NCBI GenBank assembly: GCA_964510025.1
Contig: CAZDZV010000005.1
Span: 1 to 64,000 of the forward strand
Source: an uncultured Methanosarcinales archaeon
GTDB taxonomy: Archaea > Nanobdellota > Nanobdellia > Woesearchaeales > DATDXC01
Length of the DNA: 64,000 nt
Direction of reading: 5' to 3'
The translations under genes and the position numbers were made by a program. This document shows, piece after piece, positions 20,446 to 26,863 of the stretch (the first letter of the stretch is position 1; every line of letters starts with the position of its first letter). Below the pieces are notes generated by a model. It saw nothing but the letters and a program-made list of their open reading frames with translations, had not been told where the DNA came from and did not search any database.

Positions 20446-21153
20446 ATGAAGATCATACTTGATAAAAAACCGAAGAATCCGACTCTGATAGAGGGATTCC
20501 CGGGATTTGGCCTGGTTGCGACGATTGCATGCGAATTTCTTCTTGACCATCTGAAAACAGAGCAGATAGGCAGGATAATATTTGAGGAATCACAGCCTAT
20601 GATCGCTATCCATAATAATGAGGTTGTGGAGCCCCTGGGAGTTTTCTACAACAAGAGCTACAACATAATCATAGTGCATGCTGTAACACCCAGCCAGGGC
20701 AAGGAATGGGAACTTGCAGATGTTATAGTGGATATAGCCAAGCAGCTTCAGGCAAAAGAGATAGTAAGCCTGGAGGGCGTAGGCTCAGGAGAAGCTGTAA
20801 AGGAGTCCAGAGCCTTTTTTTACAGCTCAGAAGAGAAAAAAAGAAGAAAATTTAAGGAAATAGGCATTGAGCCCCTAAAAGAGGGCATAATAATGGGGGT
20901 GACTGGCGCATTGCTGATCAAAACCCAGAAGCCTATGAGCTGCATATTTGCTGAAGCGCATACAAATCTCCCTGACAGCAAGGCTGCTGCAAAAGTGATC
21001 GAAACATTGGACAAATACCTTGGATTAAAGGTTGATTATAAGCCTTTATTGGAACAGGCTACCAAATTCGAGGGAAAACTCCAGAATCTCATGGAGAAGA
21101 GCCAGCAGGCCCAGCAGATGGCAGACAAGAAAAAATTGAGCTATGTAGGATAA
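20446..21153 (+). CDS. PAC2 family proteasome assembly chaperone (PbaA/PbaB-like)
   Basis: IEGFPGFGLVATIA, G.IMGVTGALL, PDSKAAA, C-terminal LSYVG. Confidence 0.88.
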   Translation: MKIILDKKPKNPTLIEGFPGFGLVATIACEFLLDHLKTEQIGRIIFEESQPMIAIHNNEVVEPLGVFYNKSYNIIIVHAVTPSQGKEWELADVIVDIAKQLQAKEIVSLEGVGSGEAVKESRAFFYSSEEKKRRKFKEIGIEPLKEGIIMGVTGALLIKTQKPMSCIFAEAHTNLPDSKAAAKVIETLDKYLGLKVDYKPLLEQATKFEGKLQNLMEKSQQAQQMADKKKLSYVG

Positions 21154-21607
21154 GTCTCACTTTTGAATAACTTTTTCTTAGATATTTCTCTTTGATAGAG
21201 ATTATACCCCTTATAGCAAGGAATATGCCAGTTAGCTAGTTATTGTAAGTTCAAAATTTTGGCTTTCTAGGCTTTAAAAATATAAAATAGATATGCAATG
21301 TTATGGTGCCTAACTAATCTTTTTGATATCTATCATTCCAGGATCTTCAAAATCGGCTGTTTTCTTTGTGAAAACTCACTTTTTGTTATTTGTATAATTT
21401 AAGATATATATTATTAAATATACTATATATTATATTTATTTTACATATTATTTTACAATATATTTTATTTAAGATATATATTTTATAATATATTTATCTA
21501 GTAGGATAATAATATTATTGAGTAAATAAAGATTAGTAAAAGAATTGATAAACTGTAACTTTAATTTGTTATAATTTTTTTATTATCGTCATAGAATAGC
21601 TGTCACT
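21154..21607. other. Very AT-rich non-coding region (possible DNA-unwinding element)
   Basis: About 450 bp with no ORF; near-pure A/T core at about 21380-21590 with TTTAAGATATATATT twice; two CTCACTTTT motifs. Confidence 0.5.
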
Positions 21608-22489
21608 TTATAGATTATCAAGGGGACTCTGAGTCTGCATCAATCTTTGCTTTGAAACCTGGGTGTACCTCTGAGTTGTTGCCAGATTAGAATGGCCCAG
21701 AAGCTCCTGGATCACCCTGATATCCACACCTGAATCAAGAAGATGGGTCGCAAAGGTTGACCTAAAAGCATGGCAGTAGACCTTTTTCTTTATTCCAGCT
21801 GCACTTGCTACTTTTCTTACTATCCTTTGAGCCTGCCTGGGCGTTATATGGCCTTTAGGTGAACTGAAGAGGTATATCTGCTCTTCAGGCAGCTTCCTAA
21901 GATAGGATCTCAGATGCTTGATAAAAATATCAGAGAGCTTAACAAATCTCTGCTTCTGGCCTTTGCCGTATTTCACAAAAGCTACTTTCTCTTCAATATT
22001 GAAATCATTTATTCTCATAGAAACTGCTTCTGCAACACGCAAACCTGTGCTATAGAGCAATTCTATCAATAATTTATGCTTTTTATTGCTTACAGAGCGT
22101 AAAATAGCCCTTATTTCGTCTTTTGTGAGAACAACAGGAATTTTTTGCTGATTTCTTGGATATTTGACATCCTTGAATATATCTTTTTTAAGAATATTCA
22201 AATAAAAGAATTTTAAGGCTGATATAGCAAGATTCACGCTTGAAGGCCTTAGACTGCTATCACTTAATAAAAATGCCAGATATTGCCTCAAATCTGCGCC
22301 TGTGACATCTTGCGGGGATCGTAATCTGCCTGGAGCCAGCAGGCTTTTCTGGTATTCTGGGCTGGTTTTTCTGGTGTTCAGATATTCCAGAAATTTCTTA
22401 TTCTGGAAAATATATGTTCTGATAGTCTTATCAGAAAATCCTCTTATTTTCAGCTCTGTTTCCAACTCCTTGAAAAATTGAATCACCAA
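21608..22489 (-). CDS. xerA: Tyrosine recombinase XerA/XerC family
   Basis: Full catalytic set: TGLRVAE (R), GKGQKQR (K), HAFRSTFATH (HxxR), LGH, TQRY (Y). Confidence 0.92.
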   Translation of the reverse strand: MVIQFFKELETELKIRGFSDKTIRTYIFQNKKFLEYLNTRKTSPEYQKSLLAPGRLRSPQDVTGADLRQYLAFLLSDSSLRPSSVNLAISALKFFYLNILKKDIFKDVKYPRNQQKIPVVLTKDEIRAILRSVSNKKHKLLIELLYSTGLRVAEAVSMRINDFNIEEKVAFVKYGKGQKQRFVKLSDIFIKHLRSYLRKLPEEQIYLFSSPKGHITPRQAQRIVRKVASAAGIKKKVYCHAFRSTFATHLLDSGVDIRVIQELLGHSNLATTQRYTQVSKQRLMQTQSPLDNL

Positions 22490-22529
22490 AAATCATAGCT
22501 ATGGGCAGATTATTTAAATTTTTTGGAAA

Positions 22530-22557
22530 AAGTCGTATAATATACATTATACGAACA
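22530..22557. other. dif: dif-like Xer recombination site
   Basis: AAGTCGTATAA-TATACA-TTATACGAACA: 11-6-11 layout, perfect TCGTATAA/TTATACGA arms; the reverse-strand core ATAATGTATATTAT matches the E. coli dif core; 40 bp upstream of xerA. Confidence 0.8.
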
Positions 22558-22882
22558 TCTCTCGACGAGGAAGCCTACAATGGGCTTTTGAAGTGTTATT
22601 TACACAAAAAAGGGCGGCTATTTAGGCTAGAATTGGCGCTTTGAAAGTTTGGTCATCCTAAAATTATTATTTTATTTTTAAAAAATTAATTTATTTATTA
22701 TAATTTAAGTTATGATACATCCTTTAGAAAAAAGTTTTAATAAAAGATTAAAATATTTAATCTACATCTTTAAATAAAACTTCTGATAAATTATTAAAAA
22801 TTTCTATTATAGCTATTTGTTGTTACTCTTTGGTTACTAATAATAGAAAGAATTAAATAGTAGGTGTTTTTACAAAGATAAC

Positions 22883-23548
22883 ATGACAACTGATGCTTTC
22901 CAGACAATGCATACTGTATGCATGGATCTGCAGCTGCCCCTTGATGCAATTGGTCAACCAGATGGATACAAAGCAGAAGGAAGATACCATGGAGATTATG
23001 AAAATATGCGGCAGCAGTTCAGGCATAGAGCAGACTATGTAAGGAGGCTCAATATACTTGAGATGATAATGGAGAGCCCTATCCAGGAGAGAGTGCTTGA
23101 AATGCTGCCTGATGTTAGGGGGCTTGACCTGCTTCTCGGCAAATCAGCACATTCTATATATGACTCAGTGCCTGATGACGAGCAGGAAGGATTGAAGCAA
23201 CTGCTACTTGTCAAGGATTATGGCAAAGCATTCGGAAGACTGGGTGATAAGCTCGCTGAAGCTGCAGACCGGGCGCCTAAGCACTGGCCCCTCCAAGGTG
23301 AATCTCTTGCTGATGCTATAAACGACATCAGATTCAGCCAAAGGGCCCTTTATTATGGTGCAATAGCAGTTGGATTGATAAGATATGGGAAATCAATCTC
23401 ACGTCTGGAAAAGAGCCAACTAGCCCACGGGTTCACTTATTTTGCAGGAAAAGAATACATGCCAGAAAGCCTAAAACAAATTTTCCTTCAGGCGCTACAA
23501 CTTGCCCAGAAGCAGCTCCCTGGATCTATTGAAGCTGCAAGCGAATGA
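22883..23548 (+). CDS. Hypothetical protein
   Basis: 221 aa helical ORF with upstream TTAAATA box. Confidence 0.7.
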   Translation: MTTDAFQTMHTVCMDLQLPLDAIGQPDGYKAEGRYHGDYENMRQQFRHRADYVRRLNILEMIMESPIQERVLEMLPDVRGLDLLLGKSAHSIYDSVPDDEQEGLKQLLLVKDYGKAFGRLGDKLAEAADRAPKHWPLQGESLADAINDIRFSQRALYYGAIAVGLIRYGKSISRLEKSQLAHGFTYFAGKEYMPESLKQIFLQALQLAQKQLPGSIEAASE

Positions 23549-23551
23549 TAG

Positions 23552-24094
23552 CTAAAAAAGAGTTTTCTGGTCCAGGTTCAAGATATTTTTCTTTGCTTGC
23601 AGTGTCCTGAAATGAGGATTCAGCTGCAGAAAAGTGCGACTATGGCTATGTTTCCTGTTTATTGGCACACCTTTTCTGATCATATTGTCGATGTAGCCCA
23701 TCGCCAGCTCCTCTGTCAGGCCTGTCTTTTTTGCGATATCCTCATAGCTTATCTTATCTTTAGAACCGTCCAAGGTGTAAAGAACCAGGAATACCTCCTG
23801 CTCTCTTTTTGTAAGATTGCCGACGGTAAATTCCGGCCTGTCTTCGATCTGGAGCCCATGGTTCTGGAGAAACAGCTGAATCTGGTCAATGCGCTCTCCT
23901 AATTTCTCTATCTTTGAGTCCAGTTCGCAAAGGTACTCGTAGTTTGCCTGAACCTCATTAGTATTCTCGTTGATAGCTATCAGATGATCCTCAAACTTAT
24001 CCTTGATTTCAGAGAAAACATAGCCTAACTGCTGTTTGATATCGAAATTAGAGGATAGGGTCCCCTTTCCCTGCAACATATGCACACTAAACAC
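23552..24094 (-). CDS. Coiled-coil protein with C-terminal winged-helix/HTH domain
   Basis: Heptads (LDSKIEKLGERIDQI) then LTKREQEVFLVLY..ISYEDIAKKTGLTEE...MIRKGVPI; likely start at ATG 24079. Confidence 0.8.
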   Translation of the reverse strand: MFSVHMLQGKGTLSSNFDIKQQLGYVFSEIKDKFEDHLIAINENTNEVQANYEYLCELDSKIEKLGERIDQIQLFLQNHGLQIEDRPEFTVGNLTKREQEVFLVLYTLDGSKDKISYEDIAKKTGLTEELAMGYIDNMIRKGVPINRKHSHSRTFLQLNPHFRTLQAKKNILNLDQKTLF

Positions 24095-24281
24095 CCCCTT
24101 TGAAAAAAATATTTATTTGTAGAAGGTCATAGATTTAAATAGATTTATATTTTTGAAAATAGATTTTTTAGCTATGGAAAATTAAATCCTTTTTGCACAT
24201 CGCTGTTTTTATCGTCGACAGAATAGCAGCTGGAACCCTTGGTACTATCTAACAAGGATAAAATCTATGGCCAGAAAAAAA

Positions 24282-25160
24282 CTACCTGCTTATAATCTCT
24301 TTCTCTTTTCCCTTTTGGATAACACCGACCGCATCCTCATTCTGGACCTCGTTCAGAATCCTGTAAAATGAACTTTTTGAGCATAAACCCTGGTCATCCA
24401 CGATCATTTCTTTCAGCTTCAGGGCCGGCATCTTTCCGTATTTTCTTATCATGGATATAATAACATTCTTTATGTATTCCTTGGAATTTCTGGTTATCCG
24501 TCTTACCATCTGGTTTCGCATATTTGACTTTCTCTGGTTTTCTATATCGATAAGCCTTTTGTTGATCTCATCTAATTTTGAGTCCTCTGGCAATGGCCGC
24601 TTTAGCTGATCATTGATGAGGCCCTGCAGCCTCGATTTAATCTCTTCTATCTCTTCAGGAATAGTCTTCTTGATCCCTGACAGGTCATGAACCTGCTCAT
24701 TTAAGCTGTCCAGATTATGCCTGAGCCTGCCAATATCATGGTCCTGCTCGATTATCTGCTTTATCTCATGCTTCAGCTCTGTTTTGGAAGGAACCTCGAT
24801 GTGCCTTAGCTTCATCCTCAGCTCGTCAAGCTCAAACGGTATATGCCTTTGCTTCCTGGATAGGAGATGGAGCTCCTGATTCAGTTCAGATATCTCGCTT
24901 TTAAGGTGCGATACAGCATCCCTGCTGCTGTTCCTTTCAACAATATCCTTTATCTCCTGACGGACAGAATGCTTATTCGGGATATCGCTGAGCTGGCCTT
25001 GGATGCTTATTATCCTGTCGTTAAGATAGTTAAGCCAGCTGAAGATATTGTAAATGTCCTGCCTTACATTCCTGAAAGAATGACCAACCTGGGTATGCAA
25101 ATGATCTAGATTCACCACCTTACTTTTCTTATGAAATATCATAATCAGCAAAACATACAA
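24282..25160 (-). CDS. Long coiled-coil protein with C-terminal winged-helix-like domain
   Basis: Extended heptad repeats with an internal duplication; C-terminal LKLKEMIVDDQGLCSKSSFYRILNE. Confidence 0.78.
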   Translation of the reverse strand: MYVLLIMIFHKKSKVVNLDHLHTQVGHSFRNVRQDIYNIFSWLNYLNDRIISIQGQLSDIPNKHSVRQEIKDIVERNSSRDAVSHLKSEISELNQELHLLSRKQRHIPFELDELRMKLRHIEVPSKTELKHEIKQIIEQDHDIGRLRHNLDSLNEQVHDLSGIKKTIPEEIEEIKSRLQGLINDQLKRPLPEDSKLDEINKRLIDIENQRKSNMRNQMVRRITRNSKEYIKNVIISMIRKYGKMPALKLKEMIVDDQGLCSKSSFYRILNEVQNEDAVGVIQKGKEKEIISR

Positions 25161-25183
25161 GCCAAATATTTAAAGGTTTCGCT

Positions 25184-25400
25184 TAGTCTCAGTCTTAGTC
25201 TTAATTGGGACTATTTTTTGGGAAGTATTTTTATTTTTTCCGTCGAGATATTGATATGAGACTGAGACTTTCGTGGGAATTATATGGGACTATATTGAGA
25301 CTATATTGAGACTATTGTTAGTCGATAGTTTCTCAGTCTCAGGACTATTATAGGACTATCTTAGGATAGTCCCAGGATTGGGTGTCCGTACAGGACTATT
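25184..25400. repeat. Cluster of short RGACT(A) repeats in both orientations
   Basis: 14 RGACT/AGTCY copies in about 215 bp, including 11-bp tandem units GGGACTATATT-GAGACTATATT-GAGACTATTGT. Confidence 0.75.
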
Positions 25401-25842
25401 ATGTTTAGAAGCTGCTATACGCATGACTCTAGTCATGAGATATGGCGGCCCCTCAGATGCCAAAAAACTGTAGCCCAAGGTTACTGTTATCTTGTTAAAA
25501 TTCGAAAAGCCATGGGTAGCATCAGGCCAGAAAGGATATGTTCAAGATTAGCTAGCCAGATGGAAGACAGTCCTCTTTTGAATAGGTCTCGATTCATATC
25601 ATACAGTTAGGCCGCTGCGAAACCGAAGTATTAGGTTTGCTGAAGGCCAGCCAGAGACAGGTTATGGGCAGCCTAATGCCTATCAAGATCTGTCTAGAAT
25701 GATGAATGGTCCTGAACCAGGATAGCTTGGGTGAGGGCCGGATGTTTTTCAGGATAAACTATCGACAATCTAGGAGATCTATGCTAGGTTGATTTTGCCT
25801 TAGAAACTAAATATGAAAACAAGAGATCATTTAGATAGCTAT

Positions 25843-26234
25843 TTTTTTCAATATTGTACAATAAACAAAAGTGAGAGGTAAGAAAGCGATATAGCTATTA
25901 TATTCTATGTGCTTTCTAAAGGAATAATATAGTCCTTTAAGACCATCTCAGGGGCCTGAAGCGCAGATCCATTTTTTATATGTTTGGTAATATTTTTCAA
26001 TATTGTAAATATTAATTTTTAACCTAAAAGTGAGAGTTAAATACAGGCTGATAAGATGTTTTTATGAGGGTAAAAATAGGAGTTTTTGATGAAATTATCT
26101 TATAGTGGAACTATTATTTATTTACTATACTGAAAATTAATTAAAGATGAGAAAAAGTGAGGAACCCACAGTTGTAGGCAGAATAAAAACATTAATAAAT
26201 AGCCTAATTTTCTAAAAGATATTGAAAAAGTGAG
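25843..26234 (+). repeat. Dispersed AAAAGTGAG and TTTTTCAATATTGTA direct repeats in non-coding DNA
   Basis: AAAAGTGAG at 25867, 26026, 26153, 26226; TTTTTCAATATTGTA at about 25844 and 25993. Confidence 0.65.
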
Positions 26235-26242
26235 GGTTAAAG

Positions 26243-26863
26243 ATGGTTAAATCAAAGGCGCAGCTTGCTGTTATTTTAAGCAAAATCAAGGGTTTTGATG
26301 AACCAAACGCCAAACTTGAGCAATATTCTACAGATTCTGAGATAGCAGCCGCAATATTGTGGTTTTCATATATGCAGGGGGATATCAAGGACAGAACAAT
26401 AGCAGATCTGGGTGCCGGAACAGGAATACTGGGTTTAGGTGCACTGTTGTTAGGCGCAAAACAGGTTTATTTTTTGGAAATCGATAAGCAGGCAATCCAG
26501 CAGGCAAAAAACAATTATAAAAGGTTAAAAAGTGAGTATAATATCGGCCAGGCTATATTTGTCAACAAGGAAATTTCAGATTTTAAGGTGGATGCAGATG
26601 CAGTGATTGAAAACCCGCCTTTTGGCGTGAAAAATGAGCATTCTGACAGGAAATTCCTGCTTAAAGCTATGGAAACAGCCAACAAGGTCTATAGCCTTCA
26701 TAAATGTGAGAGCAAAGCCTTCATTGAAGCCTTATGCAGGGATAATGGATTTAGGTCGTCAGAAAGGCTCAAGTTCCATTATCCTCTGAAGGCAAGCCTT
26801 GGTTACCACACAAGGAGGATATACCGCTTCAAGGTTAGCTTATTTGTTCTTGAAAAAGCATAA
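26243..26863 (+). CDS. METTL5-like N6-adenine RNA methyltransferase
   Basis: LEQYST, DLGAGTGILG, NPPFG, VYSLH. Confidence 0.9.
   Translation: MVKSKAQLAVILSKIKGFDEPNAKLEQYSTDSEIAAAILWFSYMQGDIKDRTIADLGAGTGILGLGALLLGAKQVYFLEIDKQAIQQAKNNYKRLKSEYNIGQAIFVNKEISDFKVDADAVIENPPFGVKNEHSDRKFLLKAMETANKVYSLHKCESKAFIEALCRDNGFRSSERLKFHYPLKASLGYHTRRIYRFKVSLFVLEKA

Follow-up and report, generated by a model that had tools for sequence, protein, structure and literature searches.

In the parC/ParR system of plasmid R1, the gene of the DNA-binding protein follows a repeat array that overlaps its promoter. The same layout, with the array directly upstream of the DNA-binding gene, is found in SegAB and in the AspA-ParBA system of pNOB8 (PMC5120986, available in part). 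For Thermococcales, the accessible parts of PMC2958812 describe XerA/dif at the terminus, with dif not adjacent to xerA; systems of the XerS/difSL type keep the site beside the gene. In Thermococcus kodakarensis, an SMC-dependent boundary was reported in the large intergenic region around dif, involving Smc-ScpAB and TrmBL2 (PMC11840125, available in part). Origins with Orc1/Cdc6 and origin recognition boxes (ORB) and WhiP-type origins have inverted repeats with inner AT tracts and winged-helix proteins, and the ucm/UBP system of Sulfolobus places ucm in the origin unwinding region (PMC12141716, available in part). Here we describe a locus at positions 21154-26242 of a 64,000-nucleotide stretch, called the window below (bases 1-64000 of contig CAZDZV010000005.1, C5), from the 1.70-Mb genome of an uncultured archaeon of the Woesearchaeales, assembled in 33 contigs (G000). 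Its genes have relatives labelled Woesearchaeota or Nanoarchaeota. The locus carries xerA, a dif-like site, two genes, A and B, predicted to encode coiled-coil/winged-helix proteins, and several families of repeats (M1, M2, M3 and a palindrome).

The locus resembles each of these systems in part. As in Thermococcales, a single recombinase above the XerA cut-off and an 11-6-11 site were found, and no FtsK was detected in five genomes. Here, however, in 16 of 28 loci dif precedes xerA by 14-75 bp, and the pair is mid-replichore or origin-proximal, judged from the position in relatives, instead of terminal. As around dif of T. kodakarensis, large intergenic DNA is present and SMC and ScpA are encoded; but TrmBL2 is a general chromatin protein, whereas the present locus has oriented sequence-specific motifs and two dedicated genes. 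Compared with SegAB, AspA-ParBA and ParR, no ParA, SegA or ParM gene lies in the locus, there is no sequence match, and a second, polar motif family brackets several kb. The inverted repeats with inner AT tracts and the winged helices recall Orc1/Cdc6 ORB and WhiP-type origins, but the locus has no ORB, AAA+ initiator or skew switch, and orc1 is not adjacent. Unlike FtsK with its orienting polar sequences (KOPS) and unlike Ter/RTP fork traps, M1 is local and does not converge genome-wide. The module of A, B, M1 and M2 fits the definition of no known family. Xer and dif belong to a known family, in a place that is unusual for it.

The data show a single conserved block, with outward-pointing sites under selection at the DNA level, a phased promoter array, a frequent xerA/dif and a position unrelated to skew switches in the order of the window. 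That the locus is conserved and single-copy, has this motif architecture and is linked to xerA/dif supports the assignment of a putative lineage-specific chromosome-maintenance module, as an earlier note on this DNA had supposed. It is a conserved chromosomal site of Nanobdellota and, in the window's order, not the main origin; we consider, with a probability of roughly 45%, that it would act as a centromere-like or SMC-roadblock landmark and position dif without FtsK. New in this work are the six-genome skew test, the order-level split in the distance to orc1, the coding-level selection of M1 and the palindrome in common with oriC. Literature searches, mostly without subscription papers, returned no description of an A/B-M1/M2 locus. 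The available part of a Nanobdellota preprint (10.64898/2026.05.13.725050) lists one unnamed core winged-helix orthogroup, OG0000296, which might correspond to gene A.

The exact 9-mer M1 core AAAAGTGAG occurred seven times in the window, always within 21156-26536 (0.91 expected, three or fewer in 100 shuffles). Two left copies on the minus strand and five right copies on the plus strand all point outward. Polarised motifs had been noted before; the polarity stood, but not the interval given for it, since one polar copy, at 26528, lies outside, within the next gene. We extended the counts to a locus set fetched with gene B (80 relatives and the window locus, 81 in all, for arrangement; 78 loci for motifs). 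Exact M1 copies upstream pointed outward 251 times and inward six times, and downstream 82 versus 21 times, with an upstream copy in 74 of the 78 loci. The 13-bp M1 profile AACTCTCACTTTT was present on one strand in each of the 60 loci with long upstream DNA, and M1 was kept in 10 of 12 sister-order loci selected by us out of 28 gene A matches; sister orders are the other orders of the same class, probably mainly Pacearchaeales. More than half of the upstream copies (147/243) lie inside called open reading frames (ORFs). The tripeptide K-S-E in the first divergent neighbour gene was encoded as exact M1 in 77 of 91 cases versus 11 of 266 elsewhere, which argues that the sites are selected as DNA far from promoters. 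The 1.70-Mb genome contains 16 copies, nine of them outside the locus and without excess elsewhere; orc1 control loci had 14 copies per 1.19 Mb. A role of M1 as a mere ribosome-binding site was rejected, as was that of a KOPS-like genome-wide motif; M1 is local and was not polarised genome-wide in five genomes. The 150 bp inside the innermost downstream M1 were AT-enriched in 42 of 46 loci, with a weak effect upstream (43/74).

M2 (ATAGTCCCA and variants) occupies the 400 bp before gene B, where the distances between pairs of copies peaked at 11, 22, 33, 55 and 66 bp over 60 loci. In the window, the phased cores at 25208-25393 are spaced by 79, 11, 11, 33, 11 and 40 bp; this is the iteron-like cluster that had been noticed just upstream of the genes. 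All 23 loci with B had two or more M2 copies, whereas none of the 31 loci lacking B had more than one, two of the latter having short upstream DNA.

Gene A is a 180-aa (amino acid) ORF with a likely start at the ATG at 24079, giving 175 aa as in gene call P0009. For the 292-aa ORF of gene B, TATA spacing and alignment point to the ATG at 25142 as the likely start. The structure models (predicted local distance difference test, pLDDT, 83.9 for A and 79.0 for B) had one long helix in A, long helices in B and a C-terminal winged helix in both, which bears out the pairing of a coiled coil with a C-terminal winged helix proposed earlier. Foldseek matched A to MarR-type regulators, and a VIA search found Cdc6 winged helices (Z 9.2, 9.1, 9.0) level with AF1382 and ArsR (Z ~9). 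Gene B had no match under E 0.001; the best was Hop2, and the weak rows included the winged-helix protein AspA of pNOB8 (E 0.044) and RTP (E 0.085). As candidates for a known centromere-binding family, A and B gave weak generic winged-helix matches only, and the ESM Atlas returned only unnamed Nanobdellota clusters. The WhiP family is not among the Pfam and NCBIfam matches of A or B, although whether these libraries hold a WhiP model was not checked. Prediction of an A-B complex scored 0.00, which speaks neither for nor against an interaction.

Both genes had been taken for orphans in the earlier note, but both are conserved. A single-protein query found A in 102 of 121 genomes of the order and B in 64, some of the latter being weaker paralogues; the tally for A takes in one unpublished genome (G112), which is left out of the orc1-distance count and on which alone no claim depends. 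By profile, A was present in 136 of 151 genomes of the phylum, nearly always with one match; 34 of these genomes belong to other orders, and 28 of the 34 had A, recognised chiefly by the winged helix. The true orphan, unmentioned before, is the 221-aa ORF 22883-23548(+), which has no Pfam family and found only itself among 537 candidates. In 78 of the 81 loci, all found with B, gene B is immediately upstream of A and shares its orientation, and the neighbourhood of PAC2, methyltransferase and rpoL is stable across the phylum. In the sister orders, the gene pair are paralogues along their whole length (profile comparison probability 97.4). Gene A retains the sister-order winged helix (hhalign 99.5), and B matches its sister-order partner at the N-terminus only (97.8 over 71 columns). 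Direct comparison of the A and B profiles was weak (probability 19.6 over 20 columns), so that the kinship of the two is visible only via the sister-order pair.

Further members of this family were seen elsewhere. A third paralogue (~270 aa), with M1 copies in both orientations nearby, is found at L299:8500-12700 (G085) and L313:6700-8200 (G143). This is a distinct conserved housekeeping locus, with an ABC transporter on one side and an NFACT gene on the other. Stand-alone B-type winged-helix proteins of ~130-150 aa are encoded at G085:C1:868358-868702 and G097:C1:640975-641271, the latter with the palindrome TTTCWATATWGAAA ~300 bp upstream. For the short ORFs at G000:C22:1394-1663 and G000:C2:185570-185749, the match with A or B is limited to the N-terminal coiled coil.

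The presence of xerA and of a dif-like site, both already recognised in the earlier note, was confirmed. The window XerA scored 231 bits with NF040815, the NCBIfam model of archaeal XerA (cut-off 220), and its catalytic motifs are located at residues 148, 175, 240, 263 and 272. In the dif-like site, 11-bp arms complementary at 8 of 11 positions flank a 6-bp spacer. It is the only strong copy in the genome for a profile built from related loci (34.1 bits, next match 18.9), and by eye it is identical at 20 of 28 positions to the T. kodakarensis dif given in the accessible text of PMC11840125. Full-length xerA occurred in 35 of 78 loci, 28 of them with dif; a Xer match lay within 6 kb of gene A in 36 of 79 genomes. 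The link of the module with xerA/dif was seen in the window's order and in sister orders, and the orientation of xerA differs between loci. A short tyrosine recombinase (~215 aa) occupies the xerA slot in 14 of the 78 loci (L045-L124), 12 of which have no recognisable dif. The weaker dif-like site of the source genome (18.9 bits, G000:C13:34315-34342) shares its contig with another tyrosine recombinase and a ParA-type gene, possibly an integrated element.

The source genome has two orc1-type genes on other contigs (C1 and C14). The probable main oriC is G000:C1:208700-208950, upstream of orc1, where inverted boxes, which we take to be of the ORB type, surround an AT-rich stretch with the palindrome at 208825. 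The ORB-like pattern was present in 33 of 58 orc1-upstream regions versus two of 60 B-upstream regions. For each of six relatives with complete or near-complete genomes, skew at fourfold-degenerate sites was determined in twenty stretches of at most 20 kb (~31-51% coverage); a simple purpose-written gene caller supplied the gene directions for which the values were corrected. The six were G016, G098 and G198 with the full module, G025 and G097 with A only, and G085 with A, xerA, dif and M1. A free two-breakpoint fit was significant in all six (0-2 of 200 permutations). A breakpoint fell at orc1 in five of the six and at the module locus in none, including the three full-module genomes; in most of the Woesearchaeales genomes analysed, the skew switch thus lies at orc1. 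The exception is G085, whose breakpoints were placed at 100-145 and 685-730 kb. In this genome the locus is found at 186 kb and orc1 at 588 kb, there is a second M1 cluster at 711 kb, and the third-paralogue site lies in a breakpoint interval. Genomes of the order disagree in the sign of the change in GC skew at orc1 (G085 and G098 versus G097, G016 and G198), and a strand offset runs through the whole genome in G016 and G098. In the source genome, skew was weak, with values of 0.106 +/- 0.031 to the left of the locus and 0.004 +/- 0.014 to the right, and orc1 on C1 showed no clear switch. Flank skew pooled over 44 loci gave weak signals (GC p 0.22, AT p 0.045; with the inner 4.2 kb omitted, 0.015 and 0.098), but the orc1 control had none (p 0.95, 0.29), as skew polarity differs between genomes, and the pooled test is therefore uninformative.

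Gene A and the main orc1 were both found in 94 genomes of the order, on different contigs in 89 and on one contig, 198-402 kb apart, in five; with G198 (183 kb) and G162 (234 kb) the overall range is 183-402 kb. In five of six near-complete genomes, the distance from locus to orc1 was 0.38-0.72 of the half-chromosome (0.04 in G196). In sister orders, A and orc1 shared a contig in 22 of 29 genomes, always 2-32 kb apart, and were on different contigs in seven. The module is thus origin-proximal in sister orders and detached in the window's order, dif moving along with it, and dif can lie mid-replichore or beside oriC. A free position in one order and an origin-proximal one in others recalls parS, which is origin-proximal as well. 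The earlier note had left the choice between origin, centromere and terminus open and had suggested a skew analysis. In the window's order, an origin does not agree with the breakpoints, the rarity of the ORB pattern at the locus and the separate ORB-flanked oriC on C1. A terminus fails the skew test in five of six genomes and is at odds with the origin-proximal position in sister orders. A centromere is the most compatible of the three. The skew analysis itself revealed no inflection at the locus in any of the six relatives and no clear switch in the weak skew of the source genome.

The 14-bp palindrome TTTCWATATWGAAA was found in 37 of 58 orc1-upstream and 20 of 60 B-upstream regions (shuffle totals 2.3 and 0.9), and in 14 of 29 cases it followed an M1 by 38-40 bp. 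Of the 15 matches in the source genome, three fall in the gap before gene B, while xerA and oriC contain one each. In a control set of 42 other AT-rich gaps, origin gaps among them, five also carry it, as do 400 kb of G025 with 12 copies. Scattered beyond origin and locus, the palindrome appears to be a binding site for a general chromatin protein, with a role possibly akin to that of ucm/UBP in Sulfolobus. The sequence is different: it does not correspond to the ucm printed in the available part of the Ori-Finder-Arch preprint. A TrmB-family gene lies ~1-8 kb from orc1 in three genomes (G198:C1:545816, G098:C1:497397, G016:C1:773065) and is a candidate palindrome binder, as is the second Orc1 paralogue.

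SMC was encoded in 35 of 36 genomes, the one without it being a complete 0.5-Mb genome that also lacks A. Among five genomes searched, ScpA and the TrmB family were found in all, the ParA-type domain PF13614 in three (in the source genome on other contigs) and FtsK (PF01580) in none. We propose that protein A, with its winged helix conserved across orders, would bind the outward-pointing 13-bp M1 sites on both flanks, and that protein B, with an order-specific winged helix, would bind the M2 array of 11-bp phased repeats that covers the B promoter, and would autoregulate. The coiled coils may oligomerise bound A and B and so mark off a domain around xerA and its likely target dif. More speculatively, the complex might serve as a Smc-ScpA loading site, roadblock or anchor, and the two dif copies of a chromosome dimer might thereby be paired for XerA in cells without FtsK. 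The boundary around dif of T. kodakarensis (PMC11840125) and the unsettled question of the XerA partner (PMC2958812), as far as the accessible texts of both go, make such a mechanism plausible. A bolder version, which we think rather unlikely, would be a new type of chromosomal centromere. A paralogous coiled-coil/winged-helix family would read oriented 13-bp sites, steer Smc-ScpA by orientation in a CTCF-like manner and deliver dif to XerA without FtsK or ParA, having arisen beside oriC, with which it has the palindrome in common, and relocated as a unit in Woesearchaeales. If true, archaeal SMC would have a loading or stalling site defined by sequence.

Several observations weigh against a centromere-like or roadblock landmark. 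The folds of A and B, compared on models as had been suggested earlier, matched only generic winged helices. The co-occurrence of M2 with B shows linkage and not the identity of the binder, since M2 sits in the B promoter. The module decays: four near-complete genomes (G025, G097, G022, G028) kept A without B or M2, three of them also without exact M1. Of the 15 A-negative genomes, 14 still have SMC, two of these in 4-5 contigs. No ParA, SegA, ParM or other Walker-type ATPase gene is among the locus ORFs, and PF13614 was not found in G098 and G196, which both have the module. In 43 of 78 loci, xerA is short (14) or missing (29), 13 with short flanks. Lastly, the roadblock of T. kodakarensis is TrmBL2 and TrmB-family genes are present here too, so that A and B are not needed to supply one. 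The locus bears on chromosome segregation in DPANN archaea, on sites where archaeal SMC is loaded or stopped, and on how XerA finds two dif sites without FtsK. It offers named candidates across the whole phylum: two proteins, four motifs and one position.

Other explanations account for part of the data. The locus could be an origin accessory or a dormant second origin, once part of an extended oriC, with A and B as non-Orc1 initiator-like or origin-regulating proteins and with inverted M1 and inner AT tracts acting as ORBs and unwinding elements. The proximity to orc1 in sister orders, the palindrome with its recurrent distance from M1, the Cdc6 winged helices among the top matches of A and a weak negative-to-positive GC change near the locus in G085 (local t 2.8) would fit, as would the inverted-repeat layout of WhiP-type origins in the available part of the Ori-Finder-Arch preprint. 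We nevertheless think it unlikely: breakpoints coincide with orc1 and not with the locus, the ORB pattern is nearly absent, the Cdc6 matches tie with AF1382 and ArsR, the M1 clusters are 2.5-7.9 kb apart with genes between, the palindrome is scattered elsewhere, and an outward orientation of the genes, seen at 35 of 41 orc1 loci, holds for only 25 of 44 module loci. To about the same degree we doubt that A and B are simply an autoregulated pair of transcription factors, possibly cell-cycle regulators, with the repeats as operators and Xer/dif as a neighbour in a tolerant intergenic slot. In favour of such a pair, the M2 array runs up to the TATA box of B, the start region of the divergent gene overlaps with the innermost M1 in the window (26226-26243), Foldseek matched A to MarR-type regulators, and the third paralogue with nearby M1 sits at a separate housekeeping locus. 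This would not explain the M1 copies selected inside ORFs, the strict outward polarity on both flanks or the xerA/dif linkage in the window's order and sister orders, and the absence of an exact-M1 excess elsewhere in the source genome leaves no regulon by M1.

Polar sites in opposite orientations bracketing dif could likewise suggest a terminus organiser or replication-fork trap centred on dif, of the RTP/Ter or MatP/matS kind. RTP is among the weak fold matches of B, dif belongs to termination regions in Thermococcales (PMC2958812, accessible parts), and the G085 locus lies ~40 kb from a breakpoint interval. The distances to orc1 contradict such a function, however, and with no skew switch at the locus and no genome-wide polarity of M1 in five genomes it is improbable. 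Still more improbable is a domesticated or decaying mobile element made of integrase, attachment site and plasmid-type iterons. The variable cargo between A and xerA (the 221-aa orphan in the window), the variable orientation and frequent replacement or loss of xerA and the iteron-like array would be in line with it, but the module is single-copy across the phylum in a stable neighbourhood, its xerA passes the chromosomal XerA model, and no relative of B was confirmed among 68 candidate stretches of viral contigs. The features of the locus are collected in Table 1.

Table 1. Positions of genes, sites and repeats at the module locus (window coordinates).
Feature	Position	Strand	Basis or remark
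M1 core (AAAAGTGAG), outer copy of left flank	21156..21164	-	outward-pointing; orientation kept in relatives
M1 core, inner copy of left flank	21375..21383	-	exact 9-mer match
AT-rich tract just within left M1 cluster, 91% AT	21380..21530		AT content
M3-like copy, TATCGTC core at 21584	21580..21602	+	resembles copy at 24210
xerA, archaeal tyrosine recombinase, 293 aa	21608..22489	-	NF040815 match and catalytic motifs
dif-like site, 11-6-11	22530..22557		profile from related loci; 41 bp upstream of xerA ORF
AT-rich tract, 85% AT	22650..22860		AT content
Orphan ORF, 221 aa, between dif and gene A	22883..23548	+	variable cargo
Gene A, predicted coiled coil (15-78) and winged helix (96-169)	23552..24094	-	
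M3 motif (TATCGTCGAC) between genes B and A	24207..24226		
Gene B, predicted long coiled coil and winged helix (227-291)	24282..25160	-	
TATA-like box of gene B	25167..25174	-	same position in relatives
M2 array, 11-bp phased repeats (ATAGTCYCA)	25182..25400	-	on gene B promoter
14-bp palindrome (TTTCWATATWGAAA), three copies at 25845, 25994, 26121	25845..26136		common to orc1-adjacent origin
Right-flank M1 cluster, four copies at 25867, 26026, 26153, 26226	25867..26234	+	outward-pointing
Fifth right-flank M1 copy	26528..26536	+	inside methyltransferase gene 26243-26863

Besides these features, Rfam gave no match at E 0.1 within 21000-26400, and a sigma-70 scan (26 hits versus 18.7 +/- 4.4) was uninformative. 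In contigs from three DNA sequencing runs of one study, which cover the left part of the locus, no joints were seen; such contigs carry no coverage gradient. No RNA run containing the locus was listed among the sequencing runs. Repeats had been noted in three families and are indeed present, but at least four motif families were counted. The AT-rich tracts were likewise confirmed. The ~2 kb of non-coding DNA also proved right: four stretches of 454, 393, 187 and 1082 bp (21154-21607, 22490-22882, 24095-24281 and 25161-26242; 78, 76, 71 and 65% AT, respectively) add up to 2116 bp. The window has ten gaps longer than 200 bp, and the block contains four, among them the longest.

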